From the NCBI GenBank assembly GCA_010093995.1, contig ML992517.1, positions 324,677 to 388,676 on the forward strand: 64,000 nucleotides of DNA. Direction: 5' to 3'. A program made the translations under genes and the position numbers. Under the pieces are notes generated by a model. That model was given only the letters and a program-made list of their open reading frames with translations. It was not told the origin of the DNA and did no database searches. The DNA comes from Elsinoe ampelina (lineage: Eukaryota). Positions 7,701-57,408 of the stretch are shown here, piece by piece (position 1 is the first letter of the stretch; each line of letters starts with the position of its first letter).

Positions 7701-8230
7701 CTTAACTCTCTAGTCTAAGGCGAAGTCTAGAGCTTTATTAAGAAGAATTAGTCTAAGATCTATAAGAAACTAAGTAGTAATATAGTAGTACTAGATTAAT
7801 ATCTTAGAATAAGCCTAATAAAGTATATAAGCTTAGAGATTAAGAAGAATATTAAGAACTATTTTAAGGACAAGGATTAGAAGAGTTTCGATAGAGAGTT
7901 AAGTATAGTATTAGATACGATTAAGAGGCTAGTAGAGTATAGGAAGCGAGATAGTAGAGTAATTAAGGAGTAGCTAGACGTAAGGGGATATAAGTAGATA
8001 GTAGTAAGTAGCATCTCTACGACAACGCAGCTAGGCTAAGTATTAATAATATTCTATTTAGAATAGCACATGCTCCTTGTGACGAGGTCATTCACCCTTG
8101 GCAAGGATAGAGCGGTCAATGAGACTGATTGGAATACTTGCTGTATAGTATACTAGAACCCCGTCCCTCATATCCGCAGTGATCTATGCGACCGCCAAGC
8201 TGACTCTGTGTTATCTCTGCCCTCCAGCCA

Positions 8231-30292: not shown

Positions 30293-30563
30293 ATCGGTAA
30301 AACTTGACTTTTGAAGCAGGAATAATACGATCAGGCCGAGGGCATTCGTATTGTTTGTGTAGAGACGAAGTCAATCACACTGAAGCACTCGCTTCATTAC
30401 CGGCATCATGTACTGACCTGCTCGCTAACCACATGCACTTCATCACAATCGAGCTCGATGCAATCATCTCCGGCATGTATCTTGTCCGGAGATGGTACTC
30501 GGCAAGGTGAGCAATGTTGATGGGAGAGTCAACGATGCCTCACGCGCTCGGGCGCGTTCCGGG

Positions 30564-30705
30564 TGTTGTAACTGGCAAATCGGATCGAGAGACGTGTGTT
30601 TCATTCAGAGAGTTACAATAACCGATTTATCTACTATGCGTGCGCTGACTTATTAGTACTAGTTCTTTAGTACCAGAGAAGCTATACTAGCCTTCTATTA
30701 TAACA
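30564..30705 (-). repeat. 3' LTR of copia element
   Basis: tgttgtaactggc...ttataaca; 13 transitions versus the other LTR. Confidence 0.92.
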
Positions 30706-32275: not shown

Positions 32276-35200
32276 TAGAGTAGTTAGTAGGTAGTAGGTA
32301 TTTTACTACGGGTAGGGTAGAGTATTATTTCTTAGCATAGTAGGTATAGGTTAAGTAGAGTATTCTTAGCAGTAGGTATAGTAGGGGTTAGGTAGTAGGT
32401 ATTTCGCGTGCCTAAATACTCTACCTACTATAACCTACGCCTGTGCGTAGGTAGGTATTACGTAAGCAATAGAAGCTTCTCTTAATTCTCTAATATAAGA
32501 TATTATATAGAATTTAAAATTAGAAAGGACAGTAATAATTACAGTCTCTAATTATAGCATCTTATATACTTAGTTATTATATTTATAAATGGTTCTATTC
32601 TATACCCTTATAGACAATCTTATACGCTTTACTAGAGGCTCGTTGTCGTTAATGTTATTGTTCTCCTCGTAATTGCTTAGAACAAAGTTGCCCTCTTAAG
32701 AAGGTAGCTTAAGTAGGTTATCTACCTCGTCTATAGTAGTATCTTTATAACTACTGTTAATAGTATCTTAATAACTACTAGCAACAATATTACTACTTAA
32801 TAAAGAGAGACTTGTTATAAGCTTTATAATAATAAGCTGCCGGATAGTTTATGTAGTAAGCTAGTGTCTTCTATTACTAATAATATTTTTTGCTATATTA
32901 AAGACATATTCGACGCCTACGCTAGCTATTAGTATAGCAAGAATATTATAAGCGACTTTAGTAAGCTATAGGAACTTCTTCTCGTTAGTCTTCTACTAAT
33001 TAAGTAACTTAAATTTAGTACCTAGTTAAATTCGAATAGGAGAGATACTAAGGTAATTCTTACTCTCTTAACGTATAGTTTATCTCTTCTCCTCTTGTTC
33101 TAGAAATACAGGCCCTATACTAGATTAGAAGCTAAAGCTAGTCTATAGGGAGGTAATCTATATAGGTACCCGAGGTTAACGGAACTAATCCTCTTTATTA
33201 TTAGACAAGATTATAGCGTTAAGGGTTTTAGGTTAACTTAATAGTAATTTACTATTGTAACGACTAAGGTAGTTAAGGAACTACTTACGATACTTCCCCT
33301 TATTAGTTTTAGCCTAGGTCTCGTCCTATATTACTATTAGCTTTACTGTAATAATATATCTATAAGCTATAAACCTCGTAGGGAGTTAGCTTTTATAAAG
33401 GGTTAAGAATAGTGCTATAATTAAAGAGGTAACTCCTCTTATTATTAGTGTAAGAATAGTACTTTAATAGTTTATCTCGACTACGTTACGCTACCCTTCT
33501 AACTACTATAGGCTAACGCTTCTTATTATTCTTCTCCTCGCCTATAATACTATTCTTAATTATATTAAGAAAATTAAATAGTCGATTGTATATTATCTAG
33601 ATATATAAGATCTATAGGCGACCGATAGTACTTAAAGAGATAGTTACTTCCTTAAAGTTCTTAAGTATTTTTGTAACTAGCTTAAGGTAATTCTATTCTA
33701 TACTATTAAGATAAAGACGCTTAAGATCCTTATAGTCTAGATTACTAGTGTTATTACTAACTAAGTTAGATCTAGCACTAGTAGAGCCTTTTAGTGCAAT
33801 TTCCTGCTTAAGCTATTTATCGATAAATAGCCTAAGCTTAAGACTACGCTTATATATATCGAAGGTTAAGTTCTACTACGTCTTAATATCTCGAATAATA
33901 ACCTTACGCTCTCGAGGCGTTATAGTTTATTAAAGGTTAATAAACCTCTTAAACTATTAAGGTAATCGGTCGATAGCAATATAAGTTACATAAAGCTAGC
34001 AATTTATTAGACTATAATTAGAAACTGTAATTAGAAAGCTAACCTTCCGAAGCGAGTTTAGTACTAAGAGTTTAGTAGAGATATCTTTTAAGTGCTGTCT
34101 TTTAAGCCTAGTAGTCTACTCTTCTTCCTTAGTAGTCTAAAGGTTAAGGTACTTAATAATGTCTTATATAACTAGGTTAATAATATATATAAGATATAGA
34201 ATAGTATTCTCTTACGAGTCTTACATAATACCTGTCTATCTTAGAAGCTTATATATAGTCTTACGCAACGTACGATTATTACTTATATTGTCTATAGTAA
34301 TTGCTAGAAGCTAGTCCTAGAGATTATACTACTAGAGTACCTATATAAGCTTAGTAGCTATATTCTACCCTATGTGTTAACTACGAAGTAGTACTATATC
34401 TAATAGTTGTTCCTAGAGCTACTATTAGTCGTTAATATAATAAGCTTTAATTGTAATAAAGCCTAAGTAGTTATTAGTAGACTAGCTATTAAGTGTAATT
34501 AAAATCTTTATAGTCTTATTAAGATTCTATAATAAGCTTTTATAGAGAGTCTTAAATTCGTTAATAAAGAGTATAGCGAAATAACTATAGCTTAGTATAA
34601 GTACTCCCGGGTGTAAGAACTATATAAACTATTAAAATAATAGTCGCTTAATAGTATAGAAGGACTAATTATAGTTAACAACTATTTAAACAAGCTCTAA
34701 TTAGAAGCGAGTAACTAAATACAATAGAACGTTTTTCTAATCGATTACTAGACAAGCTCGAAGTTATATAAGTACTCGAAGTGCTAGTGCTCCCTTATAG
34801 ACTAGTCTTGTTACTTTCCTATAGAAATTTAACTCTCTATGTTTACTTATTGTATTAGTACTATTCTTTCCTAGTATAGGGTAGGTAAGAGCATTACTAC
34901 ACTATAGGTAGTAAACGTATAGACGGCTATCTAATACTTGTATAGCTTCTCCGAAATATCCCTATACTTGTCTAGTTCTTAGTTTTAAGTTCTAGTATAG
35001 CATATAGAACTCCTTAGAGTAACTATAGCGAGATGCCTAAAGTGTTAAGTTCTACTACATTAAGAAGCTTTAGAGGTCTATTTGTTCGTTAGGACGTACT
35101 AAGGAATTAAGCGTTAGACACTTTAGAAGATACTATTATATAGGCTAACTACTCTTATCGCGTTATTATATAGTAAAACGATAGTTAAGCAAATCTTAAG

Positions 35201-38040
35201 GGATAGGGATTACTATAACTAATAGAGTTAATAGAAGACGTAGTTATAGATTAATTAGATCGTCGGAGTCTACTATAGTAAAGTAGAGGTTATATAGTAT
35301 TATAGATAGTATAGGTGTTTATAATATTACACTTATTTAGCTATATAATTTTAAATAATAGATTTGTTTTTAGACTATTAGAAAGTCTTCTCTACTATTA
35401 CTTTACGCGAGGCATTTTAAAACGCACTAGTAGCCCCTATACAATTATAAATATTAATTATAACTAACATTTTCAATTCTAACCTTTAAAGCATATAATA
35501 AACAGGAAGGATTAAAGTATTATTACATTATATTATTATAGTAAAGAAATTCGTTACTCTCTCTATACTATTCCTCTAGTATAAAGTACCACCTAAAGCT
35601 CTAACTCTTAATATATTACTGACCTAGAACTTCTTATAGTAGCGCTTAGCGAGGCTAGAGTCCTTAGCCTAGATAGTAATACGCTTAGCATAGATAGTAT
35701 TAAGGTTTATATCTATATATAGTATTAATAGAGAATTTAACACATATTAGATAAGTATATACCTTCTATATATCTAACAATAAATGCCTCTACTAATTCC
35801 TAGAGAGCTCTAATTATACTAGTCTAGAAGCGGAGGTTAGACTTAAAGTTCTAAGTAATCTTATAGATAAGGTAAGAAAAGAAGAGCTTATAGAATAATA
35901 GAGTAACCTCTTTCTAGTAGCGACGAATCTCTTAGAGAGCGATAGCTAGCTTCTATTAGTTCTATACTATAATTAAAGACTATAATAATTACTGCCGGGC
36001 TTATATCTATACTTCTTTCTAGGCTTAGCTCTGGATTATAGCATCTTCTTTATAGTAGGTTACTTCCCTTTATAACCTCTTTCTCTAGGACTAGTAGTAG
36101 CTTAAGGACGATTCTTAGTACGTACTATAGTAAAACGAGAAGTTGTTTATATATAGCTAAGGAGTTAAAGTTCGTATATAAAATTTTAATATATATAAAA
36201 TAGTAAAAAGAGAAAGCTAGAGTAAGAAATGTAAAATCTATTATTAGATGTACTATTTACTATTAACAATAAGAACAATAGAAGAATAATAAATAACTTA
36301 TATAATAATAGCTTCCTTGTTCCTTGCCCTAGCTTTCCCTTTTATTATTTTACATATTTGTAAATTGTAATTTCTAACTCTAACTTTACCTTTATACCTT
36401 TACCTCTTTTACTTACCTTACGCACAATTTATATACCACAAATACTCTTTTTATTATATTTAATTAAATGTCTATACCTATAAAAGACGTTAAGATAGAG
36501 TAGAAAGAGTAGGTAGTAATTAAGTAGGAAGAAGACTCTAGAGAGAATATTCTAAGGGAATTATTAGGGGTATTAATTACAGTTTCTTATTATATACAGT
36601 TGCTAACAATACTAGGGGTTTAATTCTAAGTAGTAGGAAATTAAATACGAGATCTCTTAGCATAGCGCTAGTTAAACTAGAAGAGGCTATAAGACTAGAT
36701 TTGTCGCTAGACACTCTAGACCTCTAAGTTAAAGCGCTTATACTATTAAGTAGAGAGATTATGCTTCTTAGCGCATATATAAGAAGCAAGCCCTAGCTAC
36801 CGCTTATATAGTAGATTATAAAGTAGTTAGTACTTTATATAACAAGATTAAGATAGAGAATAGGTAGGACTAGCTCTCTACTAATAAGTAGAATATCAAA
36901 ATTAATAATGCTATTAATAATATAGAGGAGAAACGCTTTAATAAGTAGAGGAGTAGTAAGTCTATTATTATAGTATACTATTATAGTAGTACTAATTGTT
37001 ATAGGCGAGTAGCTCGAATCTATATTTATATAGACCTACAAGAAATAGGCTAGTATTAGAAAGACTCTATAAAAGCAAGAGTATAATAAGATTATTAAGC
37101 ATATCTAAGATAATATAGTAGTAAATTAGCAAGGCGAACAACAGCTAACACGAGCCTATACGTATATCTATAGTACTAGCGGTATTATCGAGAAGCTATA
37201 GCACTAGATTTACTAGAATAGCTATATAAGCCTTGTTACTAACGACACTAATAATAAATAGACACACGAGATTTTTTTTAAGTAGCTTAAAGAGCTCTCT
37301 CCTACGGAATTAGTAGTCTTATAGGATCCTAACTAGTAGTAAGTTTATTATAGTCTTTAATTACAGTGTATTCTAATAATTATATAGGTAAGTTATTCCT
37401 CTACCTCCTAAGTATAAATGCATCTCCGAGCTTAAACTCTATAGTACTAGGCTATACTATAAAGGAGACAACGATAACGAGTATAAGGAGAAGGTTAAGG
37501 AGAATAAGGATAAGATCGAAAGGATGTTAGATAAAGAAGCTAGTAGTAAGAAGAATAATTATTTAGGTGTTAAAGTTAAAGATAAGTCGGATAGTAAGGA
37601 TAAGAATAATAAGGTTATAGAGTACTCTAAGCTTAAGACTAACACTAATAACGATAATAAGGATAAGGATATAAAGGATAAGGATATAGAGGATAAGGAT
37701 GCTACTAAGGTTAAGGATAAGGAGATGTCTAATGCCTAGGTATAATAGGAATTAAAAGTGCAAAATCTATAAGTAGTAGCATTAGAGAATATAGTTTATA
37801 ATTAGAATCTGTAATTAGTAATCCTCTCTTGTCAACTTTTGAGATTACTACTTAAACTTTTTAGATTACTAATACCCTACTAGGTATAAAATTAATTACT
37901 CTACCCTACCCTACTTACCTCCTGGTATACTCTACCCTTACCTACCTTAGCGTAGGTATACTAAGAGGTAGGTAGAGTATAGGTAGGGTAGGGTATAGGT
38001 ATCTAAATTATATACTCTACTCTACCTACTAACTACCCTA
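32276..38040 (-). mobile_element. Full-length hAT DNA transposon (RIPed) nested in the copia element
   Basis: TIRs tagagtagttagtaggtag / ctacctactaactacccta; 8-bp TSD gtaaagta (32268-32275, 38041-38048); minus-strand relics TL(D)(G)(W)S ~34480, D.KT(RW)N ~33880 and hATC (WW)KTNEKKF..ILAI.IASVGVE.VFNIA ~32890-33010. Confidence 0.92.
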
Positions 38041-38149
38041 GTAAAGTATAATAAGTAGTTAGTAGTATAGGATAGTAGTTAGTATTAAGTAGTAGATATA
38101 GCTTAGGTATAAGTAGCTAGTAATAGAGTTATAATAGCTTTTCCTTTCT

Positions 38150-41027
38150 CTCTTTTTAATAATAAAGTAATAGATATTACTTTAGGCTTCTAATAAATAA
38201 GATAGCTTAATAAGTAGTAGTAGCATAAATAACATACTTAAAATAATAATATATATAAAATCTAAATAAGTGTATAGTATAGATATATACTAAGTAATTA
38301 GCCTTTACTAATTAATTAAGGATCTTATTAGGAGACTTAGGCTTTATAAGTGTATTAGCTAATTACTAAGTTATATTAATATACTTAAGCTTAATTGCTC
38401 TAAGCTTATACTACTCTCTATAGTAATAATTCCTTAAATTAATATACTTAGATCTTCTTAAATTAGTATAATCTCTTATAAGTTTAATAGCTAACTTATT
38501 ATTAACAAAGACTATAGTTAGGCTAAGGTAAATATTAGTAAGTAGCCTAAGTTTAATAATAAGATTTCTTAACTAATTAATCTCTCTATAGGTCTTAGTA
38601 AGGGTAAGGTATTTAGCCTTAGTACTTAATAATATAATAATCTTCTATAGCCTTAACTTCTAAATAACTAGTGTACTAAGTATATAAATAATAGTACTAG
38701 ATATAGATCTTATAGTTAATCTATCTNNNNNNNNNNNNNNNNNNNNNNNNNNNNNNNNNNNNNNNNNNNNNNNNNNNNNNNNNNNNNNNNNNNNNNNNNN
38801 NNNNNNNNNNNNNNNNNNNNNNNNNNNNNNNNNNNNNNNNNNNNNNNNNNNNNNNNNNNNNNNNNNNNNNNNNNNNNNNNNNNNNNNNNNNNNNNNNNNN
38901 NNNNNNNNNNNNNNNNNNNNNNNNNNNNNNNNNNNNNNNNNNNNNNNNNNNNNNNNNNNNNNNNNNNNNNNNNNNNNNNNNNNNNNNNNNNNNNNNNNNN
39001 NNNNNNNNNNNNNNNNNNNNNNNNNNNNNNNNNNNNNNNNNNNNNNNNNNNNNNNNNNNNNNNNNNNNNNNNNNNNNNNNNNNNNNNNNNNNNNNNNNNN
39101 NNNNNNNNNNNNNNNNNNNNNNNNNNNNNNNNNNNNNNNNNNNNNNNNNNNNNNNNNNNNNNNNNNNNNNNNNNNNNNNNNNNNNNNNNNNNNNNNNNNN
39201 NNNNNNNNNNNNNNNNNNNNNNNNNNNNNNNNNNNNNNNNNNNNNNNNNNNNNNNNNNNNNNNNNNNNNNNNNNNNNNNNNNNNNNNNNNNNNNNNNNNN
39301 NNNNNNNNNNNNNNNNNNNNNNNNNNNNNNNNNNNNNNNNNNNNNNNNNNNNNNNNNNNNNNNNNNNNNNNNNNNNNNNNNNNNNNNNNNNNNNNNNNNN
39401 NNNNNNNNNNNNNNNNNNNNNNNNNNNNNNNNNNNNNNNNNNNNNNNNNNNNNNNNNNNNNNNNNNNNNNNNNNNNNNNNNNNNNNNNNNNNNNNNNNNN
39501 NNNNNNNNNNNNNNNNNCTATTAGTAAGCCTCTTAGTCTTAAAGACCTATTTGCCTATTATTAGCCTAACACCTCTTAGTGCCTAAGATTTCTTAATAAT
39601 TAAAAAGGTTTTAGAGTTAGTTAGAGCCTTCTACTCTATCTCTATTATAGCTTACTAGTAATAACCTTTAGGAGAGAACAGTACATCTCTTACTATTTAT
39701 AGGTCTAGCTTAAAATTAACAGCTATAGATCTAATAATCTTACTATTATTAAGTTTCTTATAATTAATCTAGCGATATATTCTAAGGGACCTTCTAATAG
39801 TTTCTTATAGTAAGAAAGATCTCTTCCTTTTACTAGTTAGAGGTTATATATTAAATAGTATAATAAGGAAGTTAACATCCTTATTCTATATATATATTAG
39901 TAGTTAATTAACATTAACTATAGGATTAAAGGTTAAATATAGTTCACTAACAACTTTAGGTAGTAGTATTATAAGGTCTTTACCTTTATAATTAGTAATA
40001 TTAAGTTGCTTCTCCTATTTATTAATAGGTTAAGGATCTAGTTTAGGATATTAGTGTTACTCCTTCTATTCTTTAATAGGGGTAGGTAATTATTATTTAT
40101 ATCTAGGGATTAAAGGGTAGTTAGATATTAGTTATTTAACTTAAGGTTATTTAGCCTAAGTAGTTTATAGATTCTTATAACTAAAGGGTAGTTAATTATA
40201 GCTATAGCCTTAATTATAATTACTACTAAATGTCTACTTCCTCTAAAGCTATAAAGCTTTAGGTTATTATATCTATAAGATATATAGCTATCTAATAACT
40301 TATATTGCCTAGTCTTTATAGACTATGTTCTTATTAAATGTTACATAGGGTAATATAATAATCTTTCCCTTCTAGGCTTACTAAGTATAATACTAATAGA
40401 GTATCTAGATAAGGTAATTAGTTATTAAGTTGTTCTATATGCTAATATACTAACTAAGTAGTACTCTAGCTTAGAATTTGTGTAATTTAGGAACATATTA
40501 GTTATAGATATAGGCTCTATAGCCGAAGTGTCTAATATAAGTTAATAAGACTAGCCTATTATTATTAAGAAGATTCTTTCTTAGCTCTTATATAGGAATC
40601 TTCTTAGTTTTAGTATAGGTAATTCTATTACTAATATAAATTACAAACTCTATAACTATATACTAGAGTTTAAGAGGTACTTTATAATTAATAAAGATAT
40701 ATCTTGTTTTAAGAATAACTACTTTATTAGTAGCCTTAGATTTACTATTTTAGTATTAAGTATTAGGTATAGAGATGTTTTATCTCTACTCTTTAAGATA
40801 AATAGCTATTACTAGTTTATAGTTCTTAAATTTACCTCCTCTATTAGAGATAAAGATAAATAAAAGCTTATTATAGGCTATTTTATTCCTTATATAGATA
40901 AGTTTAATTACTACTAGTATATTACTCTTAAGGAAGAGGATAGTAATAAACTTATACTTACTCTTGCTATATGTTATAAAGAGAAGATATTTATAGCCCT
41001 TACTTAACTATAGTTTAATAGGACTAA
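38150..41027 (-). mobile_element. Probable gypsy-type pol fragments nested in the copia element (interrupted by gaps)
   Basis: Minus-strand relics resembling gypsy RT/RNaseH (LDTSAI ~40520, LPI(L/P)KTKR ~40610, PYVTFNK ~40340); ends unresolved. Confidence 0.4.
38727..39517. other. Assembly gap (N run)
   Basis: Run of n. Confidence 1.
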
Positions 41028-41657
41028 NNNNNNNNNNNNNNNNNNNNNNNNNNNNNNNNNNNNNNNNNNNNNNNNNNNNNNNNNNNNNNNNNNNNNNNNN
41101 NNNNNNNNNNNNNNNNNNNNNNNNNNNNNNNNNNNNNNNNNNNNNNNNNNNNNNNNNNNNNNNNNNNNNNNNNNNNNNNNNNNNNNNNNNNNNNNNNNNN
41201 NNNNNNNNNNNNNNNNNNNNNNNNNNNNNNNNNNNNNNNNNNNNNNNNNNNNNNNNNNNNNNNNNNNNNNNNNNNNNNNNNNNNNNNNNNNNNNNNNNNN
41301 NNNNNNNNNNNNNNNNNNNNNNNNNNNNNNNNNNNNNNNNNNNNNNNNNNNNNNNNNNNNNNNNNNNNNNNNNNNNNNNNNNNNNNNNNNNNNNNNNNNN
41401 NNNNNNNNNNNNNNNNNNNNNNNNNNNNNNNNNNNNNNNNNNNNNNNNNNNNNNNNNNNNNNNNNNNNNNNNNNNNNNNNNNNNNNNNNNNNNNNNNNNN
41501 NNNNNNNNNNNNNNNNNNNNNNNNNNNNNNNNNNNNNNNNNNNNNNNNNNNNNNNNNNNNNNNNNNNNNNNNNNNNNNNNNNNNNNNNNNNNNNNNNNNN
41601 NNNNNNNNNNNNNNNNNNNNNNNNNNNNNNNNNNNNNNNNNNNNNNNNNNNNNNNNN
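41028..41657. other. Assembly gap (N run)
   Basis: Run of n. Confidence 1.
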
Positions 41658-42911
41658 CTCTATTCTTACTATAGGTTAAGAATAATAATATAGATACTAC
41701 TACTACTCTATAGACTAGTATAATAATATTAATATTAGTGTTAGAGTATTTATCTAATTTATCTACCTTAGTAGGTTCTCTAGATTCTTTAATAGCTACT
41801 TAACCTTTAACTTTCTTAGTCTTTAACTTGTTACTTTTGTCTTTAGCCTTTATACCTTTATTATTTAACTTGTCTTTGTTATTCCTTTTACTTTAACTCT
41901 TTAGTACTTTCTTAAGGTACTACTTAAAGTAATCTATATTAGAGTAGACATAATAAGTACACTAAGTGTATTAATCCTTAATATAACTAGCTACTCTATA
42001 AATAGGGTTTAGATTAGTTCTTCTATTATATAGGGGCTTCTATATTCTAAGAGAGTCTATTATCTCTTCTAGACTCTTCTTATAGTTAAGGCTAGATCTT
42101 TAGCTCCTTAACTATTTAGTAGTCTCTATTTCTATAATAAACATAGTTTTAATATAGTATAGAGGGAGCCTAAACTTATCTAGTTTAGTACTAATAGTAC
42201 TTACTCTTTGCTCTATAGTAATAGTATATTAATAATAGTACTTTATAAAATCTTTATAGTACCTTTAGGTGTTATAACTTATTATAATTACCTTATTAAG
42301 GTTATAGATAGCTATATATAGCTTATATAAAATAACAAGTTTAAATGTAGCTTTAATAGTATTTAGAAGTTTCTTTAAAGTCTTCTAAGTTATACTATAG
42401 TAAGGTCTAATAGATTTATAAATTCTTATTATAATAATACTATAAGTAATTCTATTATTCTTATGCTAGGTTTTATTTCTAACCTTATAGACTGCCTTAG
42501 TGCCTTTACTAGTATCTAGGGCTAGTTCTTTAGGCTTTATAACTACTAGTATCTAGTTAATGTTATAAATTGTATATCTAAGTATATCCTTTTTAAGGAG
42601 AGTTACCTTAAGGGTTAATCTCTAAGTACTATAGTTGCTCTCTCTCTTAAGAATCTAAGTCTTAAGCATTTTTGCTAATTTAGATATAATAATAGTAATT
42701 AGCTAAAGGCCTATTAATTTAATTAATATAATTAGCTTGTTTAAGCCGTTTAAGCCGTTTAATTAAAGGGTTAATACGGGCTACTATAAGTATTTATCTT
42801 AATGTAGCTAGTCCAGAATTTAGTGTAGGCGGCTTAGTAATCCTTTTTATAATAACATGCTTAATTTGCTATAGCTTTAAGTGCTTTTATAGAAGCGCCG
42901 GGCTTATAACC

Positions 42912-43053
42912 TGTTATAACTAGCAAATCGGATCGAGAGACATGTGTTTTATTCAGAGAGTTACAATAACCGATTTATCTACTGTGCGTGCGCTGACTCA
43001 TCAGTACCAGTTCTTCAGTACCAGAGAAGCTGTACCAGCCTTCCATTACAACA
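42912..43053 (-). repeat. 5' LTR of copia element
   Basis: tgttataactagc...ttacaaca followed by TSD ccggg. Confidence 0.92.
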
Positions 43054-43058
43054 CCGGG

Positions 43059-43299: not shown

Positions 43300-43917
43300 A
43301 TGAGCCAGTCCCAGACTTGCTTGGTTCCGTACGTGAACACGGATAATGCACCCTCAGAAGTAGCAGCAGCCATTAATCATCTTCCATACCGACGCAACAT
43401 CTTCCACCTCCTGGGCCACTCGCATGGCTCTTTCCCCAGGTTGATGAGTGTCTACGCCAACTTCTTTGATGGCAAACGACGTATCCTGCCCCTCCTGGAC
43501 TGGCAGCTCATTGTACTGCGCATTTCGGCCGTGCTGGATGCCGAGTACGAGTGGGACGTCAATTCCCCCGTTGCGCGCATAAACGGCATGTCAGACGCAA
43601 AGATAAAGGCAATCCGAGACACGAGGGCTGGGGGACGTGTGGTGAACGATTCAGATTTGTTCAGCGGCAGAGACAAGGCGATCTTGAATTTGGTTGATCA
43701 ACAACTTGCGACCTACGACAATTCGGAGGAGGTCGTGAGGCAAGCTCAAACATTCCTGAGTGTGGAGGAGCTGGTTGAGGCATATGTCGTGCTTGGGATC
43801 TATGTGTTGATCGCCAGGATCACGAAAGCGTTGAAGATAGATATGGACGGTGAGATACCGGGGTTGGAGGAGCATCTCAGGAAAGTTGTCACTGCAGATT
43901 ACCCGAAAGTACAGTAA
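43300..43917 (+). CDS. AhpD-like / carboxymuconolactone decarboxylase (CMD) family protein, 205 aa
   Basis: NIFHLLGHS, LPLLDWQLIVLRIS...AEYEW, GMSDAKI, LSVEELVE..V.G.Y pattern typical of CMD-fold proteins. Confidence 0.75.
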   Translation: MSQSQTCLVPYVNTDNAPSEVAAAINHLPYRRNIFHLLGHSHGSFPRLMSVYANFFDGKRRILPLLDWQLIVLRISAVLDAEYEWDVNSPVARINGMSDAKIKAIRDTRAGGRVVNDSDLFSGRDKAILNLVDQQLATYDNSEEVVRQAQTFLSVEELVEAYVVLGIYVLIARITKALKIDMDGEIPGLEEHLRKVVTADYPKVQ

Positions 43918-44386: not shown

Positions 44387-46424
44387 ATGACAACGAACAA
44401 CTCCAGCCTTTCTCAAGAGGCAAATCCACAGAGTCACTTGGCTGAGTCAAAAGAGTGGGAGAAGGACACGCCTAATGGTTCCGATCACGTCAAAGAAGAA
44501 GCTCCGGAGGCGGATGCTTCTCCTCGCGATGTCCATGGATTCATGGTGAGTTGTGCCACACCCATGACATGTCTTTCGGTGCTGACAGATCAAGTGGTTC
44601 CTCGTGGTCATCAGCATTCTCTCTAGCATCTTTCTCTACTCTCTGGATAACACCATCGTTGCCGACGTAACGCCTGTGAGTGCTCCCCCAACAGCAAGGT
44701 AACGCCTATCTGACCTTTTCAGGCCATCACCAATCGCTTCGGGAACGCTGCTCTCCTGCCATGGCTATCTGTCGCGTAAGTGTCCAAAACCCTATCGCTG
44801 AAGAGACCTCATCGTCTGAAACCTGTAGGTTCCTGCTTGGTGGTTCCGCAGTAGTGTTGCCGTTCGGCAGGCTGTTTGGCTCCTTCGACGCCAAGTGGCT
44901 CTACATCGGGTCTTCGATCATATTCAACGTTGGATCTGCTGTCTGCGGAGCAGCGCCCAGCATGAACGCTCTCATTGTTGGTCGTGTCCTGGCTGGTATG
45001 GGAGGAAATGGCATGTATCTCGGAGTCATGACCCTTCTCTCAGTCAACACTTCCGACAAGGAGAGACCTGGCTATCTCAGCTTCGTGTAAGTAAGATTAT
45101 ACTTGGGTAGGGTCTGATCTCTCGAATCTAACATATTGCAGTGGTCTCGTCTGGGGCATCGGTACAGTTCTCGGCCCTGTCGTCGGCGGTGCCTTTGTCG
45201 AATCCAGCGCCACTTGGAGATGGGCTTTCTATATCAACCTCTGCATCGCCGGCTTGTGTGCACCAATCTACCTCTTCAAGATCCCCAACTTCAAACCTCG
45301 TGCTGGAACACCGACAATGACCCTTCTCAAAGAGTTGGATTTCCTTGGTACCATTCTCAGTGTTGGTGCCATCATGACAATTGTCATGGCCATCAACTTC
45401 GGCGGCACGCTTTACGACTGGGGTTCTGGCCAGATCATCGCCCTCTTCGTTGTATCAATCGTACTCTTCATCGTCTTTGGAGTTCAACAAGCGAGGCTGA
45501 TCTTGACGGATCTTCAGAATCGAATCTTCCCCTGTCAGTTCCTTCGCAACTGGAACGCAGTGCTACTGTACATCTGTGCTTCAGCCGTCAACACTGCTGG
45601 ATTCATTCCGATCTACTACATCCCACTGTACTTCCAATTCACTCGAGGCGACAATGCGATCGATGCAGCTGTTCGTCTGCTGCCCCTCATCTTCTTGTTG
45701 AGTGGTGCCATCCTCGCCAATGGTCATCTGATGTCCAGATTTGGCTATTTCCAGCCGTGGTACGTCTTCGGTAGTGTACTGGCTCTCGCCGGGGCTGCCT
45801 TGATGTGTGAGTACTCTTCAAACTACCTTTATGCTTGAAGCTGATCATGTATAGCAAAAATCGAGACAACGACTTCGGTCAGCCGCATATATGGCTACGA
45901 GGTTCTCATAGGTCTGGGGACGGGTTGTTTCATCCAAGCTGGATATGCGGTCATCCAAGCCGTCGTACCGCCAGCTGAAATGGCGTCTGCAATCAGCTTC
46001 ATGATGCTCGGTGAGTGTGTTGCAGACTATCCTAGTAATATTCGCTGATCTTTCGGATTAGCTCAACTCGGGGGCATTGCCTTCGGTCTAGCCATCGCCG
46101 GCGCTGTCTTTGTCAACAAAGCTATCAGCGGGCTCGAAGTGCTGTTACCCAGTGCTTCACGCGCGGACTTGCAACTGGCCATCACGGGGACAAGCGGTGC
46201 TTACTTTCGCACTCTTCCTGGGGACCTGCAGGGCCAGTGCATCGATGCTGTGGTGCTTGCGCTCAGGGACGTCTTCATTCCAGTCTACGTGGGTGCTGCT
46301 GTGTGTCTTGTGGCTTCAGTCGGTTTCACTGTAAGTGAACAAATCCAACACTTCTCATACGAGTATGCTGACACGATCCCAGCAACGCAGACTGTTCAAA
46401 GATGCTGTGAGCGTTGCTGCCTAA
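44387..46424 (+). CDS. MFS drug:H+ antiporter (14-TMS, DHA2-type) exporter, multi-exon
   Basis: LYSLDNTIVAD, GSAVCGAAPSMNALIVGRVLAGMG, GPVVGGAF..WRWAFYINL, YYIPLYFQF; several GT-AG introns. Confidence 0.92.
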
Positions 46425-46616: not shown

Positions 46617-47642
46617 TCAATCATCTTTGAATAGCCATACACATTTCCGAGTGCCTGGTGTGTTTGCCTGCACTCTTTCCAGCACTTCTCTCATCACACT
46701 CTCATCGACAGGCCATTCTCTAACATCAATCTCCGGAATAGTCAACAAATTGTCCACAAACATCTGCGCTAATCCATCGAACAAGGCTTCCACCCCGCCA
46801 TCTTCCTTCTGTGCCAGGATGGCTGATCCCCTAAACGTCCTCAGTGTGATCTGCTTGGTGAAGAGGTGCTTGGCCTTCAAAATGACAGTCTCATTGATAC
46901 CTCGCAGCACACCAAGCAGAACATAAGTCGCCCCTGTCGCCACGACATCGAGCAAAGCCTCTCCCGTAGGACCAAACACACAGTCCAGCGCCAAAACAAT
47001 CGGCTCTGGAAACGAGGGACGGGCAACGACTTCAGCTTCCGTCAACACCATCTCCGCTCCAAGACCAAGCAATCTCTCCCTATCCTCCTCCGCCTCCTCA
47101 CTGTCTCGCACGACCAGCACAACCTTCACCCCCTCGATCTTTGCGAATTGCACCACAAAGTGAGCTACACAGCTCGTCCCCGCCGTCATGATGATCCAGT
47201 CTCCGGCCTTCAGGGGGATGACTTCATGCAAGAGCAGCCACGCAATCGCTACATTCGAACGGAGCAGAGCTGCAGCCAACGGTGGCGTGTCCCTAGGTAG
47301 CTTGATGAGGTTCTCATCCGGGAAGACGGCGTGAGTCCTCCATGTCCCAAGTCCCAGTCTGGCAGGTATCACCAGATCCCCCGGCTGGAAGCGTGAGGAG
47401 TTGGATCTCACCACCACTGCGCAACCGTCAAAGCCAGGGATGGGGGCGCCGTCGTGTGTGGCGGATGGACTGACGGGGTAGGAGCCGGAGAGAACCATCA
47501 TGTCGACTTTGTTGATGGGGGAGGCGGCGAATTTGACGAGGACTTGGCCTTCTACATTTGTCCATTGGGGGAGGGCGTGTTTGATGAGATGGATGTCATT
47601 GATTGCGGAAGGGATCTGGCAGGTGATGCTTGAGGCTTCCAT
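46617..47642 (-). CDS. 2-enoyl-thioester reductase (MDR family, Etr1/MECR-like)
   Basis: VLVKFAASPINKVD..GSYP, PGFDG, GDLVIP..LGTWRTH, GDWII..AGTS.V, LALDCVFG. Confidence 0.85.
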   Translation of the reverse strand: MEASSITCQIPSAINDIHLIKHALPQWTNVEGQVLVKFAASPINKVDMMVLSGSYPVSPSATHDGAPIPGFDGCAVVVRSNSSRFQPGDLVIPARLGLGTWRTHAVFPDENLIKLPRDTPPLAAALLRSNVAIAWLLLHEVIPLKAGDWIIMTAGTSCVAHFVVQFAKIEGVKVVLVVRDSEEAEEDRERLLGLGAEMVLTEAEVVARPSFPEPIVLALDCVFGPTGEALLDVVATGATYVLLGVLRGINETVILKAKHLFTKQITLRTFRGSAILAQKEDGGVEALFDGLAQMFVDNLLTIPEIDVREWPVDESVMREVLERVQANTPGTRKCVWLFKDD

Positions 47643-47886: not shown

Positions 47887-48767
47887 TCATTTGGGGGCCG
47901 TATCGTTCCACTTGATATGAGTGACTCCATCAAACACCGGGCTGATGAAAACGTCGACCCGAGGATCCGTAACAATCTGAGTGTTGAACTCATTCAGTGC
48001 GTCACCGCAGTCTTGCCAGTACTTGCGGACATGATCGTTGAGCCAAGGGGCACAGTCCTTGCCGACCGAAAGACCACGAGCAAAGACTGTTGGATATCAG
48101 CAACGCATTCTGGGTCACGAACCAATGCATGGCCTTTGAAGACTTACCATTGTCGCAGAGGATGATGCCATTTGGAGACAGAAGTTTACGGTCGAGGATA
48201 GTTCGAACGTAGCCAGCATAGCCATCTTTGTTTGCGTCGACAAAGATGAGATCGAAATTTCCGTCGAGCTTATCCAGACTGCGATTGTTGTCAGCTGTAT
48301 TCATCTCGAGCGTCAGTGATTGTCTCACCTCTCTTGAGCTGGCCCTTCGATCAGCTTGACTCTGTCTTCCACACCAAGCCGGGCAAAGGCGGCCTTGGAT
48401 GCTGCTATCATCTTCTTGTTGAGCTCCAAAGTAATGATTTCAGCCTTTGTGTCCTTGGTGCCTTCGTACCAGGCAACGGCGCTATAGCCTGAGTAGCATC
48501 CGATCTCCAGCACTGTCCGACATCAGTGATGAGCGGAGGGTTTGGTACGTCAGTCGACATACCTCTCTTTGGCTTGCGATCCTTGGCCGTGAAGATCATC
48601 CACGACCCCTGCAGCTTGGATGACATTTTATCCGCATCGGAAAAGTGCGAGCGGGTGAAATCCCAATGGTCGAGTAGATTTGGGGGAATGGGAGTGGAGA
48701 GCTGCTCGCAGTAGTCACTAACTCGAGCCGCCACCTCTTCGTCAAAGGGAAGCACACTGCTGAGCAT
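47887..48767 (-). CDS. O-methyltransferase (CCoAOMT/catechol-OMT-like class I), 3 introns
   Basis: LEIGCYSGYSA, FDLIFVDANKDGY, GIILCDN|VFARG, DPRVD..SPVFDGVTHIKW. Confidence 0.9.
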
Positions 48768-49798: not shown

Positions 49799-52700
49799 AT
49801 GCTACTGTCGAATGGGCTTGACGCCGGGCGATATGGCAGCAGTGGCATTCGAAGAGGATCCTCTTTGCGCATCAATGCTGATCAGGTCATGGGGATCACA
49901 CGGTCAATTGCTACAGTCGATGGAAAGATCGAACATGACTGCACACCATCGCAACTTGAGGTCATTGAAGCCGCCGGGTCGGATCTTGAACAGTCTGTCA
50001 TTTGTTGGGAATTACCTCGCGACATGGTAGCCAACTACGACGTCCTCAACTTGACATGGAAGCTCCTTGCGAGCCATCATGCGGCTCTTCGCACGAGTAT
50101 CCGCTATCGGAATCGTGACGAAAGCAAAATATACCAGAACCACATTCTTCCTGGTACCGGGGACGTACTCCTAGGTCGACTCGATGAGCTTCCACCTCTG
50201 GAGGCACCTCCTTGTTTGGCCATTCACGGAGCGTCAATCTCTCTTTCGCTCATCCTGTACATACATCCAGCTCTTTTGGACGGGACGTCTGTGAAGACAT
50301 TGATACGGGACTTCTGGCAGATACTACGAGGTGACATCAACCTCAGAGTAAGACCCTTTTCATCATATCTACTTGACGTCAATTCCAAGGACTCGGACTC
50401 GGCCATGACCTATTGGCGCAAATCGATGCCGGTACCAAGTCAGACATTCTTACACGGCTTCACAGCTGAGCGTGATGGTCAATTCCGCTATACTACTGCA
50501 TCCAATTCTCAATTAGAGCGGCGTGAGCTTTCCAGATTGGCAGAAGAGACAGGCTGCCCCGAAAGTACCATCATCTACGCAGCTCTCGGTCTGAGTCTCT
50601 GGTATCATGGCAACGTTGGTAGTGACGGACAGCTTGTCATCGCTGTGAAAGGGCGAGATAGCAGTCTTATTGCTTCAGACTGTCTGGTCGAAAAGATTGA
50701 TCAGGAGTATCCTCTCGTTACCTCGATCGATCCTTCCTGTACTGTCAGGGAGCTCTTGAGATCGACGCAAGCAGCTGATACCGAAGCCTCTGCCATGGCG
50801 TGGATTGGTACACATGGTATTCGTCAGGCGACAACAGGCGAATATCCCAACATCAAGATCAGCATCGACCATGGTAGCCAATGGGACCTGTCCAGTAGCA
50901 CCAAGGACGATCATGATATTGCTATTCATGTTTCGCTCCAGGAGCACATTTCCATCAAAGCCCGTCATGATAACCGCATACCATCTCAGTCTATCAAGGT
51001 AATACTGGACCATTTCAGTACTGCCTTGTCTAGCATGGTGGCGAACCCTCACGAGCGGCTGGATAGGATTGAGGTCATATCAGCCTCCGAGAAGCGCCTA
51101 ATCATGTCAGTGGGTGAGGCTAAAAGCCGGTCAGTGGCGGACCTGGTCCATCGTCTGGTCGAACATCAAGTCAGATTGACTCCGCGGTCTCCAGCGGTGC
51201 AGTTTGAGAACGAAGAGGCGCTCACGTTTCGCGAATTGGACGCTAGAGCCAACCGACTGGCCAGGATTCTGGTCAGAAAATCTTTGCCGTTTGTTCCCCT
51301 GTGTATGGACAGGTCAATCAACATGATTCTGCTCATGTACGCCATCTTGAAGTCTGGATCTGCATACGTGGTACTGGATCCAGCTGTTCCGATTGAGAGG
51401 AACCAGTTTATCATTACCGATGTTGGATCACCAATTGTCATTGTCGACCGAGGAAATGCAGGCCGTTTTCTTCGAGAATGGGTGATTGAAGACCTGATCG
51501 AGCATTCCATCGTCGAATCCGATGAGCCCCTTTCACTGCGAACCTCTCCAAAAGATCCTGTATACGTCATATATACATCTGGATCGACTGGAAAACCAAA
51601 AGGTGCCCTTCACATACACGAATCAGCCACTTCAGGACTCGCTGCGTTTCCATTCCTCCCCAATTTGAGACAGCTGTTCTTCCACAATCCAATCTTTTCT
51701 GCTGCACAAAGATCAATATGGTCAACTTTGAAGCAGGGCGGATGTCTTTGCATTGCAAGCAAGGAGAATCTGACTGTTCACATCAATCGTACCATCAACC
51801 TGATGGAAGTCAATGTTATCGACGTCACTCCATCCACTGCTCTACTCATTCAACCTGGGACGGTTCCAACATTACGCAGGATGACAGTAGCTGGAGAGTT
51901 GATCAACCCAGCTTTGGTGCCAGCCTGGGTGAATGAGTTGGAGCTCCTCAACGCTTATGGTCTGACTGAGAATACTCAGGTCAACTGGAGGCAGCAGCTG
52001 ACACTTGACAAAAACCCGCAGAATATTGGGAGGCCCACAGACACAACCACTTCCTATGTCCTGATTCCTGGGACAACCAGACTCGCTCCTCTACTTGTCC
52101 CAGGAGAGCTCTGCCTTGGGGGACATCAACTAGCCATCAAGTATCTCAATAGGCCAGAAAAGACGGATGAAGTCTTCATCAGCAACCCCTTCGGCTCCGG
52201 TCGTCTGTATCGCACTGGTGATCTGGTTTTGGCTCAACCCGACGGATCCATTGAAATGATTGGCAGGATCGACTTCCAGGCCAAAATCGACGGTCAGCGG
52301 GTCGAGCCGGGGGACTCCAATTCGATCCTACAGGCTCATCCAGATGTGTATACGTCGGCGGTTGTTTCAGCTCAGGTAGGCCACCGGAAAGCGTTGGTGG
52401 CTGTCGTTGTGCCCAAGGTCAGGTCGTCATGGCCGAGACTACATACTGAGCTGAGGGAGCTCTTGGGTCAGAAGTTGCCCAACTACATGGTACCATCGTT
52501 CTGGCTACCAATTACAGACCTTCCTCTCAACGTGAATGGCAAAGTTGACATTCCGCAATTGACCAAGTCGGTGGAGAAAATGGGTCGGGCTCACCTCCTC
52601 GGTGCCGCAAATCGCTTTGCCGCCGAAGCGGAACCAGGATCTGAACTTAACTCTGCCGCCATCAAGACCGCAACCACTTCACCCCAAATCAATGGAACCT

Positions 52701-55700
52701 CGCAGATGACCGCAGTAGCACTGAAACTACGGGATATCTGGGCAGAAGTACTCATGCTGGAACCATCATACATCTCACCCCAAGACTTGTTCCAATCACT
52801 TGGTGGATCCTCTCTGGACGCAGTACGGGTCATATCCAAGTGTCTTCAGTCGCAGATGAAACTCACAGTGGCCGATCTGTTGATCATGCCATTGAGTAAG
52901 CTCGCAAAAATGGTGCAGGATGTCCACCAGACAAATGGCCTACATCCGGAACAAGTCATTGTCTCCCTTCCGAGAAACGCCCCCATAGAGCCGGAGGAGG
53001 TTTTGGACGTCTTTCCAGCGTCACCGATACAAGAAGCGTTTCTTGCGGACACTTTGAGAGGTAACACCTACTACATCTATCGAAGATACTACCGCCTGAA
53101 TGGCCGTAGTTCGGAGCAGGTCCAGCATGCCCTGCAACAACTTCTACCTTCTCACCCTGTGCTGAATTCGACATTCATCACCGATAAGAGGACCTTTCTT
53201 CAGGTCATCCTGAAGAAGCCTTGTTTGTCTTGGCAAGAAGAGACTACAACCTCACTAGGCCAGTATTCGTCAAGATCTAAGCATGTCTTCGAATTCGGAC
53301 ATAGTCATGTTCATTTCACACACCTGCAGGATGATGTCTTGGCCATTACTATACATCATGCACTCTTCGATCACTGGTCCAATGGATTCCTTGTCGATGA
53401 TGTAGAAGCAGTTCTCCGTGGCAAAGTGTCTATCGCTCGTCCCTCTGCCAGACCATTGGTGGCGCATATCATGTCGCAGGACACTGCAGCGACGAAGACG
53501 TACTGGCAGCAGAACTTCGCTGCTTCGCCAAAGACTCTGCTGGATAGAAATGGATCCGACTTCGTCGCAGTGTTTGCAAAGGCAGTGCAAGGTGTTGGAG
53601 ACTTCGCCAAGACGCACCGCATCTCCGCAGGTGCATTGGTGTTTGCCGCCTGGTCTGTTGTGCTTTCTCTGTATACTAAACAGACTGATGTCATGTTCGG
53701 CGCTATGCTATCTGGACGAGATAGTCCCGTCCCGGGCGTCCTCGAGGTGGCGGAACCGACCGTGACCACAGTGCCCTTTCAAGTCAAGCTCCGAACTGAG
53801 ACCGCTGCTGTGGAATTTGCCAAACAGATCCAGGAGCAGGTCTGGGTGTCCTCCGTGCAAGGACGTATCGGTCTACGCCGAATCTTGCAATACACTGGTA
53901 TCTCCTCGGACGATTTCGACACTCTGGTCAACGTGTTCATCAAGCCGGAAGGCAGGAAGATTGACCATGAGAGGATCCTACAGCCGATCCCTCCATTCGA
54001 GCCCAATTTCGTAGAGCAGACCATGCTGGAAGGAGGACTGTCCGACGATGGTCTTCATCTTCGTCTACTCTCGAGGCTGCCCCATGATCTCGGCACAACT
54101 ATACTGGACAAAGTCTGCTTTGTGCTTGAAACGATGCTAATAGATGCAAATGTCGACGTTATGCATCTCCGAGACTTGGCGAAAGCATCAGATCTTCGGC
54201 CCACGCAAACGATAGCGCCGGATGCTCCTGCTCTGCTCGCACATAGTCTTTTCGCCAGAATGGCGGAGCGTCACCCAGAGAAGGCGGCTCTCGTGGATAT
54301 ATCTGGTGGTATGACATACAGAGAGTTCGATATAGCATCGTCAAACTTCGGCAAGGTACTCGTTGGCCACGGTATCAGGCGAGGAAATATCGTCCCTTTG
54401 CTTCTCACTAAGAGCATCTCGACACTCGTTGCGATTTTCGGAATACTCAAGGTTGGTGCGGCGTTCACCCCACTCGATCCCAAGAACTCAAAGGAGCGCA
54501 ACACATTTGTGATACAGGACGTGGACGCTAAGCTGCTCATATCTGATGGCGCTAATCGGCATCTGTTATCCGGCATGGATATAGAGATTGTCAACATGGA
54601 TACGGCCATGGTCGCCTCCACCGACGTGAGCGATGCTGCAGTAGGCCGTGACCTGCCAGGACCTACACCGGAAGACATGGCATACACCATCTACACCAGT
54701 GGATCTACTGGTACCCCAAAAGGGGTCAAGGTATCACATGAAGCAGTAGCAGCCTCCACAGAAGGTATGATCGAGGCTTGCAATGTCAATGACAAGTGGA
54801 GGGCCCTTTGGTTCTTGAACTATGTCTTTGACGCTTCGTACTTTGACGTCTTCACGATTCTCAGCACCGGTGGCACCCTTTGCATAGCTGCTCAAGACGA
54901 CTTGATCAATGACCTCGCCAATCACATCAAGCTCTTTGATGTCCAGCAACTCATGATCACGCCGACGGTAGCAAAGCTGATCACGCCGGGAGATGCTCCG
55001 AGCCTGAACACGCTCTTGGTATGCGGTGAGCCCATCACGCCGCATGTGACTGAAGTCTGGGCTTCGCATCTGGATGTCTACAATGGATATGGTAGGTGCT
55101 GGCAGATTCTCTGAAAAGCGCTGATGCTGACGAGCCGAAAGGTCCTACCGAAGCTACAATCCTGATGACCGTCGCTCGGGTCCAACCGGGCAGCAATCTC
55201 AAAAGTATCGGCAGACCTATGAAACATGTGACGGCCTTGATACTTTCACCTGATGGTACGAAGCAGCTACCAATCGGCGAGATTGGTGAACTGTGTGTCG
55301 CGGGCAAGCAGGTCTGTATGGGGTACCACAAGCGACCTGATATCACCGCTCGAAGTTTCCAGGAGCTAGAGGACGGCTCTGTGGTATACCGAACAGGTGA
55401 TCTAGCTCGTATCTTGGCTAATGGAGAGATCGAGTGTTTCGGCCGACTGGACAATCAGGTCAAACTGAACGGGTACCGCATTGAGCTGGGCGAGATCGAG
55501 AACACTTTGTACAGGGAAGCCTCGGAGATTCTGGAGGCCTGCGTTGCTCTTGTTCGCACTGGGAGCAATGAGAAGAAGCAATTGGCAGTCGTATATGTTC
55601 CTCGAAGCAACAAAACCGCCCAAGCTATTTCGTTCCTTGATTCAGCGACTTCAATCGATCCTCAAATCTTGGCCTCGAGACTCGGCTCCTTACCACAGTA

Positions 55701-57408
55701 CATGGTCCCTCGACTCTTTGTTCCAGTCTCGACAATGCCTCTTCTTGCGTCGGGCAAGATCGACCGTCGTAGAATTGCGACCATGCTTGCAGAAGCAGAC
55801 GACGGGCAGCTCGCAGCATACATGGCGCTTCTTGGCTCGGACGATGCCGAGGTGACTGCCAATTCTTCGCCCCATGAGGAGACTTTGCGGGAGTTGTGGG
55901 CGGCCCTTTTCGATGTGGGTGCCGACGCACTCAACCCAACAACGAGCTTCTATCAACTGGGAGGGGACTCCATCACTGCGATTCAGCTGTCTGCAACATT
56001 GAGGAAGGCAGACATGATTGCATCTGTCGACGATATATTGGCCAACCCAATCCTGCGGAATCAAGCCCATCGGATCAGGCGTGGCAAGGCATTGGTCTCT
56101 GAGAATGTATCATTCACGCCCAGCGTAGCAGACTTGCATCGACTGGCAGCTGCAGGAGTTGCAGAAGACATGATCGAGGACATGTATCCCTGCGCCCCAG
56201 GTCAGGCTGAATTTCTCACACAAGGTCAAAAGAACGAACAATTTTGGCAATTGATGACAGTCCGCCGATTACCTCCTGGATTTGACGTTGATCGTTGGGT
56301 CGAGCTTACAAGGGAACTGACAAGAGTCAACCAGATTCTTCGATCCATGTACGTCAAATCGGACAAGAGCCAGTGGTTGCAGGTCGTTCTCAAAGATCCC
56401 GTGGTCGATGTGCAATACTTCCACTCGAAGGATGAGACCACCAGTAGCGATGCCATCAAGACGCAGTGGGACGGGCTCTTCCAACTTGGCCGACCGTTCG
56501 TGCGGTACCTCGTCATAGTCAACAAGGACAAGTCGATGGATTTGGTAATCAAGCTCGATCATGCCATGTACGACGGGACCTTGCTCCGCATCTTCGACGA
56601 GCAATTCTGCGCCCTGCGAGACGGTCAAGCATTGCCTCAGATCGTTGAGTTTCGAGACTTCCTCCGACACTGCCGACAAGCCGACCGACAAGCCATGCTG
56701 ACCTTCTGGAAGGACATGCTCCAAGACAGCAAATTCGACTACCCCTCGCAACTCAGCAACCCACACGCCACGGGCGTCACATCCCTCAAAATCGACCTCC
56801 CCGTGCAGGCCTATGCTAGCAGCACAGCCACAACACCGGGCACCGTCTTCCAAGCAGCCTACACCATCCTCCTCAGCGACCTCAGCGCCAGCTCGGACGT
56901 GCTCTACGACTACCTCCTCACAGGGCGCAACGTAGACATGGACAACCCGCAAACGATCAACGGGACCTGCGCCAACTTCCTCCCTTTCCGCGTGGTGGTG
57001 GACAAGAACATGCCCGTGGCCGAACTCCTCCGCAAAACGCAGTCGCTGTTCTGGAAAGTCACCGAGAACGGCCTCGTGAGTCTGGGGGATATTCACGACG
57101 CGATGGGCGCCGACCGGGACGAGGCGGGCGCCAAGACGCTGTTTTTGTATCAGCCTTTTGAGCCGGCCACGGGGCCGCAGGATCCGATGAGGTGGATCGT
57201 CATGGCGATGAGTAGGGTTACGATGCACGTGAATTATGCGTTGATGTTGGAGGTGTTTAAGGATGTGAAGGGGAATAGGCTGAAGTTGCAGTTTGATGAG
57301 AGGGTGTGGTCGAAGGAGGAGGCGGGGGGGATTGTGAGGAGGTATGAGGAGATTTTGGGGAGGATGGTGGTGGTGGGAGGGGCAGGGGTGGTGGGGGAGT
57401 GTTTGTAG
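49799..57408 (+). CDS. Bimodular NRPS, C-A-T-C-A-T-C (~2519 aa, one intron 55092-55141)
   Basis: Two YTSGSTGxPKG and YRTGD A cores; T domains LGGSSL (~52800) and LGGDSI (~55960); C motifs HPALLDG, HHALFDH, DHAMYDG; intron joins NGYG|PTE. Confidence 0.95.

Follow-up and report, generated by a model that had tools for sequence, protein, structure and literature searches.

Two nonribosomal peptide synthetases (NRPSs) of Aspergillus fumigatus are the closest described relatives of the enzyme reported here. SidE is a fumarylalanine synthetase and FtpA a fumaryl-l-Tyr/Phe synthetase, and the first adenylation domain (A1) of each uses fumarate (PMC9307002; PMC10549243). A SidE group of NRPSs has been described, whose members include Podospora Pa2_7870 and, from A. 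fumigatus, Afu3g03350 and Afu3g15270 (Bushley & Turgeon 2010, PMC2823734). We analysed a 64,000-nt stretch of the Elsinoe ampelina genome (contig ML992517.1, positions 324,677-388,676; hereafter the window), which carries an NRPS gene at one end of a seven-gene cluster. By architecture and tree placement, this NRPS is a two-module enzyme of the SidE/FtpA family, and its immediate neighbour, an O-methyltransferase (OMT), is by alignment an ortholog of Podospora anserina PaMTH1. A1 by itself adds one more member to a known fumarate-type group; the cluster, with PaMTH1, an Arg-type enoyl reductase, a CMD-fold protein and a P450, is an undescribed variant.

The NRPS and its relationship to SidE and FtpA

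The NRPS gene (49889-57408, plus strand) encodes 2489 aa in the order C0-A1-T1-C1-A2-T2-CT (C, condensation; A, adenylation; T, carrier domain), and its product matches KAF2219372.1 at 100%. An in-frame upstream ATG at 49799 is also present, the open reading frame (ORF) being 49799-55114 (+). The single 50-nt GT..AG intron (55092-55141) interrupts A2; it is removed in the annotated KAF2219372.1 and is spliced out in contigs from two of four sequencing runs. The runs carry no RNA label on record, and X1, X2, X4 and X5 were taken as RNA because their contigs are spliced; such contigs show presence only. The NRPS is an expressed gene. Contigs from runs X2 and X3 omit 142 nt within the terminal C domain (56713-56856); the omitted stretch has the non-canonical ends AC..GC and may be an artefact of assembly or template switching.

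Pfam matches and motifs give the NRPS the bimodular A-T-C-A-T-C architecture of SidE and FtpA, plus an extra degenerate C0 at the N-terminus (49889-51120, plus strand, as are all the domains). C0 has the motif HPALLDG, without the catalytic second His, which is likewise absent from 21 of the 22 homologues with an alignable C0 (26 were examined, four of them without an alignable C0 motif). A1 (51143-52558) is followed by T1 (52724-52879), in which the Ser of GGSSL is intact, and by C1 (53006-53935), whose HHALFD is of the motif type common to SidE and FtpA. The intron-split A2 (54236-55773), an intact T2 (GGDSI; 55879-56073) and a terminal C domain that keeps the catalytic His (DHAMYDG; 56176-57360) complete the enzyme.

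The alignment with SidE and FtpA A domains that an earlier sequence-only reading of this DNA had proposed placed A1 with both. SidE, FtpA and the window A1 fall into one clade (48 of 74 rows, SH-aLRT 100), recovered in a more careful tree as 19 of 31 rows with support of 100/100; the rows had been chosen by hand from among some 290 proteins. Within this clade the window A1 is nearer to FtpA (51% identity) than to SidE (39%), in a 33-row clade with support of 100 and, in the careful tree, an unstarred 13-row clade (92/99), and it occupies a subclade of its own. The 2109-aa NRPS was assigned as SidE (Afu3g03350) through its sequence cluster, which contains proteins named SidE from A. fischeri/lentulus. 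The 2353-aa protein, named 'NRPS7', was taken as Afu3g15270/FtpA because the published group has two A. fumigatus members, because AFUA_3G15270 lies within the ftpR cluster (PMC13068945), and because only the 2109-aa and 2353-aa proteins were listed as A. fumigatus sequence clusters in the two homologue searches.

The window NRPS resembles FtpA in several respects. The two share the bimodular architecture and an A1 code of the form S-A-R-D...Q..K (six of ten letters; FtpA, SARDVGSQLK), their A2 domains are 44% identical and fall into the same A2 subclade (99/97), and the cluster of each contains a methyltransferase as well as a Zn-cluster regulator. They differ in that the window NRPS has a full-length C0 and distinct A1 and A2 codes (FtpA A2, DGYNAGSICK), and apparently in their neighbours: FtpM is a carboxyl methyltransferase (PMC9307002), whereas the window neighbour is a cation-dependent OMT of the PaMTH1 type. 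Relative to the part of the ftp cluster that was covered, the window cluster further contains a P450, a CMD protein and an enoyl reductase. With SidE the enzyme shares the A1 clade, S-A-R..T..Q..K (six of ten letters; SidE, SARGTVSQLK) and the C1 motif HHALFD, but SidE has no C0 and its A2 (DVYFTGGVLK) lies in another subclade. Orthology to FtpA was ruled out by the codes (six of ten A1 letters, three of ten A2 letters) and the separate A1 subclade, and orthology to SidE by the different codes, the presence of C0 and the separate subclade.

Specificity of A1 and A2

Alignment to GrsA (PDB 1AMU) with phmmer sets F-S-A-A-Q-R of A1 opposite F234-D-A-S-V-W, confirming in the ORF the sequence-only observation that FSAAQRSIW at 51695 stands in place of FDxSxxE. 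Positions 278, 299, 301 and 322 are D, T, A and A; Q330 and V331 come immediately after ...TENT of the alignment, and NGKVD at 52535 contains the counterpart of K517. The alignment thus reproduces the earlier code, SARDTAAQVK. S235, A236, R239 and Q330 are common to 117 of the 120 best listed A1 homologues, the exceptions being two truncated sequences and one bacterial Asp-type domain, so the S-A-R...Q pattern is not due to chance. Its likeness to SidE A1, which had been suggested earlier, was borne out and extends to the A1 of Afu3g15270, with the Lys also shared. An AlphaFold model of A1 (pLDDT 88.0) shows an ordinary A-domain fold with 1AMU as the top Foldseek match (TM 0.84); the Foldseek/PDB comparison turned up no solved A domain of the fumarate type, and the model confirmed the fold only.

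The sequence-only reading had also taken the loss of Asp235 to indicate a non-amino-acid substrate. This is not a rule, because the A1 of PlmJ has Ser235 and activates l-Met (PMC10549243). Fungal A domains that activate fumarate are themselves reported to have Ser at this position (PMC10549243). The dicarboxylate that it had predicted is supported instead by the clade and by the Arg/Gln pair; on these grounds A1 very probably takes a dicarboxylate, and fumarate is the probable one.

The A2 code DAFMLCGILK was likewise reproduced against 1AMU, with Asp235 kept. The code is hydrophobic, as had been claimed, and a hydrophobic amino acid is the likely predicted substrate; the suggestion of an aromatic residue could not be established. 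DAFMLCGILK recurs in 18 of the 120 listed matches, which contain 48 different A2 strings, some of them truncated. NRPSs with SARDTAAQIK-type A1 and other A2 codes occur in the dimorphic Onygenales (Histoplasma, Blastomyces, Paracoccidioides and Emergomyces), and SAR-type bimodular NRPSs of the basidiomycetes Taiwanofungus camphoratus and Amylostereum are nested within the ascomycete clade. From its codes, the family is predicted to retain a diacid starter and to exchange the second module.

Linkage to a PaMTH1-type O-methyltransferase

The OMT gene (47887-48767, minus strand; 239 aa, KAF2219371.1) has three coding introns and one intron in the 5' untranslated region, and is transcribed divergently from the NRPS gene. 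Its product is identical to PaMTH1 (PDB 4QVK/4YMG) at 169 of 237 residues (71%, E 1e-118), and the next PDB match (E 8e-20) is about 100 orders of magnitude weaker. The protein is full-length, has the DANKD and LCDN motifs, shares its neighbour with PaMTH1 and belongs to the PaMTH1 type; it is the single close copy in the E. ampelina genome, where the other matches are 31% identical.

NRPS and OMT carry consecutive accession or locus numbers in all seven genomes checked, which were selected as candidate pairs rather than sampled at random and cover two fungal classes: E. ampelina (OMT/NRPS, KAF2219371/72), E. fawcettii (KAF4547718/17), Truncatella angustata (KAH6658495/96), Neopestalotiopsis 37M (KAF3010364/65), N. 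clavispora (KAF7541774/73), Cytospora paraplurivora (KAK7742005/06) and P. anserina (OMT/NRPS, Pa_2_7880/7870). Sixteen OMT matches were divided into five that form candidate pairs with a listed NRPS match, five on short contigs and six from named genomes that were unpaired. Sordaria macrospora is reported to lack PaMth1 (PMC2851567).

For two decades, work on PaMTH1 has treated it as a flavonoid methyltransferase of mitochondria with a role in 'longevity assurance'. The enzyme methylates vicinal hydroxyls in vitro with S-adenosylmethionine and a metal, has been assayed on flavonoid and catechol substrates, and figures in the literature both as a polyphenol/flavonoid OMT and as a lifespan factor (PMC5945814; PMC2806012). 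The strings 'NRPS' and 'peptide synth' do not occur in the main texts of these two papers. A literature search, mostly of titles, returned no link between PaMTH1 and an NRPS cluster, although papers on the PaMTH1 structure and on SidE/FtpA may bear on the point; searches for the window cluster, the codes and locus tags found nothing on the cluster, nor on a product or role of its Podospora counterpart, the tags giving unrelated mentions.

The Podospora counterpart cluster

The Podospora ortholog of the NRPS, Pa_2_7870 (PODANS_2_7870), has A1 and A2 codes identical to those of the window (68% identity in A1, 54% in A2), and its neighbour Pa_2_7880 is PaMTH1 (PMC3495915). Pa_2_7890 is annotated as a trans-2-enoyl-CoA reductase, 7900 as MFS and 7920 as P450, while 7910 carries a peroxiredoxin-activity Gene Ontology term and 7930 nuclear, zinc and transcription-factor terms (PMC3869774 supplements). 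Pa_2_7870-7930 thus has the gene classes of the window cluster in the same order (NRPS-OMT-enoyl reductase-MFS-CMD-P450-Zn2Cys6); the window cluster differs in being split between CMD and P450 by a long terminal repeat (LTR) element. Given this conserved order beside PaMTH1, it is likely that the NRPS cluster makes a natural substrate of PaMTH1.

TTTGCTC is a motif of the GRISEA/Mac1 type, GRISEA being a copper regulator. It matches eight times in the window against 8.2 expected, and there is no match between OMT and NRPS, which argues against tight co-regulation. In the Podospora grisea mutant, Pa_2_7870 stands at 0.02-fold and 7880 at 0.06-fold (PMC3495915 supplements). Over seven ages, Pa_2_7870-7920 were expressed at 834-10168 tpm, compared with 99-215 tpm for Pa_2_7930 and 18-40 tpm for the flanking 7850/7860 (PMC3869774 supplements). 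With such high expression in laboratory Podospora cultures, the metabolite should be easy to find. Pa_2_7940, which directly flanks the Podospora cluster, is the het-D incompatibility gene (81-222 tpm; PMC3869774 supplements). We excluded Pa_2_7860/7940 and, in the window, an F-box gene at 57953 from the cluster for want of a shared class or because of low expression.

An Arg-type enoyl reductase

The gene beyond the OMT (46617-47642, minus strand) encodes a paralog of MECR/Etr1-like 2-enoyl-thioester reductases (best PDB matches MECR/Etr1, E 1e-36). The protein has no presequence. The Tyr of the 'GxYP' motif is retained, but Arg271 stands where Etr1 has the Trp of 'GFW'; both sites line the MECR active site. 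Arg271, the missing presequence and a separate housekeeping Etr1 on another contig ruled out that this is the mitochondrial Etr1/MECR. In a tree of 150 representatives, the window reductase and the housekeeping Etr1, the window protein belongs to a clade of 55 members (FastTree 0.999) with Arg in 42, Lys in two, other residues in three and a gap in eight at the Etr1-Trp site, while 75 of the 103 lower-ranked matches have Trp there. An Arg in this position would suit an enoyl thioester tipped with a carboxylate, such as fumaryl. The cluster draws attention to what looks like an Etr1-like subfamily with a Trp-to-Arg change.

Proposed pathway and alternative explanations

We think it probable that fumarate and a hydrophobic amino acid are joined to an N-acyl amino acid, which is then tailored by the reductase, the P450 and the PaMTH1-type OMT; a tailored N-fumaryl/succinyl amino acid is the likely product. 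As suggested by its clade and code, A1 would adenylate one carboxyl of fumarate while Arg239 and Gln330 hold the far carboxylate. The domain order suggests that C1 would make the amide bond to the residue that A2 has loaded, and the motifs suggest that the terminal C domain would release the product, C0 being presumably a non-catalytic relic. More weakly, the Arg-type reductase may convert the fumaryl thioester to succinyl. The chemistry and linkage of PaMTH1 would fit a P450 that makes a catechol or other metal-chelating hydroxyl, which the PaMTH1 ortholog would O-methylate. The MFS protein would export the product and the Zn2Cys6 factor regulate the cluster.

Several points weigh against this pathway. 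A1 differs at four of ten positions from both characterised fumarate codes, including Ser322 to Ala. As positions 301, 322 and 331 differ from both (Ala, Ala and Val, against Val/Gly, Ser and Leu in SidE/FtpA), the diacid need not be fumarate. These residues would widen the pocket, and the most plausible other substrates are succinate or a C5 acid with a methyl branch (mesaconate, citraconate or itaconate), with the logic of the cluster otherwise the same. The cluster does hold a decarboxylase-fold protein and an enoyl reductase: the former could form such an acid by decarboxylation, the latter could give a methylsuccinyl group, and methylsuccinyl amides are known fungal metabolites. We nevertheless regard another diacid as unlikely, if worth keeping in mind, since fumarate is the substrate of the two characterised members of the clade, which stand on either side of the window A1 in the tree, and the CMD assignment is a fold-level match (Pfam E 1e-5). 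The PlmJ A1, a Ser235 domain that activates an amino acid and is proposed to be skipped (PMC10549243), raises the question of whether the window A1 might do the same and leave a dipeptide or a single residue as product. However, PlmJ A1 (SIVIVTAGTK) lacks Arg239 and Gln330 and has three of ten letters in common with SARDTAAQVK, while S-A-R..Q is almost invariant among the listed homologues and the T1 and C1 motifs are intact, so we give this very little weight. Pathways of the E-64/epoxysuccinate type were rejected, being NRPS-independent (PMC12568646), with no ATP-grasp enzyme or α-ketoglutarate oxygenase seen in the cluster. The remaining doubts about the assignments are that the 2353-aa protein was equated with FtpA by elimination and by the neighbouring ftpR locus tag, without a direct match; that A2 has three of its ten letters in common with FtpA A2, too few to establish an aromatic residue that could form a catechol; and that for the reductase, MFS, CMD, P450 and regulator genes the correspondence with Podospora is one of annotation class and gene order, not of sequence.

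Expression and distribution also speak in part against the fumarate-based pathway with PaMTH1 as its tailoring enzyme. Over the seven ageing time points, expression of the Podospora genes shows no consistent co-variation (r with 7870 from -0.28 to 0.70; Pa_2_7880 against 7890, r = -0.90), and six named genomes (three Colletotrichum, Bombardia, Cytospora leucostoma and Durotheca) have PaMTH1 homologues without an NRPS ortholog among the 120 listed A1 matches; the OMT may therefore be present in some genomes that lack this NRPS. These findings would be expected if the NRPS made a plain fumaryl-amino acid and the OMT were a linked gene for self-protection or general polyphenol detoxification, with no action on what the NRPS makes; PaMTH1 indeed methylates flavonoids in vitro and is required for quercetin-induced lifespan extension (PMC5945814; PMC2806012). 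The immediate adjacency of the two genes in every genome checked across two fungal classes, their divergent transcription in the window and the joint collapse of NRPS and PaMTH1 in grisea make such independence rather improbable. We therefore prefer the tailoring role and tentatively extend it: PaMTH1 could be a tailoring enzyme of a GRISEA-dependent seven-gene fumarate-NRPS cluster found from Podospora to Elsinoe, with a hydroxylated N-fumaryl/succinyl amino acid as substrate, in which a hitherto unrecognised Arg-type Etr1 subfamily reduces a dicarboxylic enoyl thioester and an unmethylated, metal-reactive intermediate causes the lifespan and copper phenotypes of PaMth1. The cluster offers a concrete hypothesis for the endogenous substrate of PaMTH1, an ageing factor with a crystal structure and deletion and over-expression strains, and it defines an orphan pathway whose A-domain codes are identical in many ascomycetes. 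Of five loci returned by a metagenome scan, one is a genuine relative (71% over 114 aa); it carries no flanking genes.

The remaining cluster genes and a retroelement insertion

The MFS gene (44387-46424, plus strand; efflux-type, seven spliced introns) and the CMD gene (43300-43917, plus strand) follow the reductase gene. The 205-aa CMD/AhpD-fold protein has a single Cys near the N-terminus and so lacks a CxxC motif; the ESM Atlas gave family names only for it and for the reductase. Run X1 contigs contain spliced NRPS, OMT (four introns) and MFS (seven introns), and cover the CMD and reductase genes.

Between the starts of the P450 and CMD genes lies an LTR retroelement island degraded by repeat-induced point mutation (RIP), at about 30559-43058. 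Its 12.5 kb, an approximate length because of two N gaps inside, are AT-rich with a strong RIP signature. It is bounded by 143-nt repeats with TG..CA ends that are 91% alike (30564-30705 and 42912-43053) and by a CCGGG target-site duplication on both sides. From the LTRs and the duplication we conclude that an LTR retroelement was inserted here and that the CMD and P450 genes were originally about 500 bp apart. The element sits in their divergent promoter; the gene-facing LTR ends are less damaged by RIP, and related LTR copies were found in transcript contigs.

The P450 gene (28555-30292, minus strand) encodes the heme motif FGYGPRSCIG, and a PDB search gave no useful relative. We saw no spliced P450 contig in four runs, which, as contigs show presence only, is not evidence of silence. 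The Zn2Cys6 transcription factor gene (27060-28541, plus strand; three introns, AflR-like region) is spliced in all four. In X1, X2 and X4, its spliced contig (26972-29925) continues across most of the convergent P450 gene, whose introns it retains, possibly as antisense read-through. Silencing of the P450 by the LTR insertion is a possibility, and the element before this gene may leave the E. ampelina pathway incomplete.

Beside the transcription factor gene, three of four runs contain a spliced contig (24721-26684) with one 155-nt GT..AG intron at about 25306-25460; its ORF has no Pfam match, and it may represent a long noncoding RNA or an orphan gene. Farther from the cluster, a 2108-aa Ulp1 protease/Myb protein is encoded at 10661-16987, and positions 1-8000 form a second AT-rich block degraded by RIP, with a composite RIP index of 1.5-2.4.

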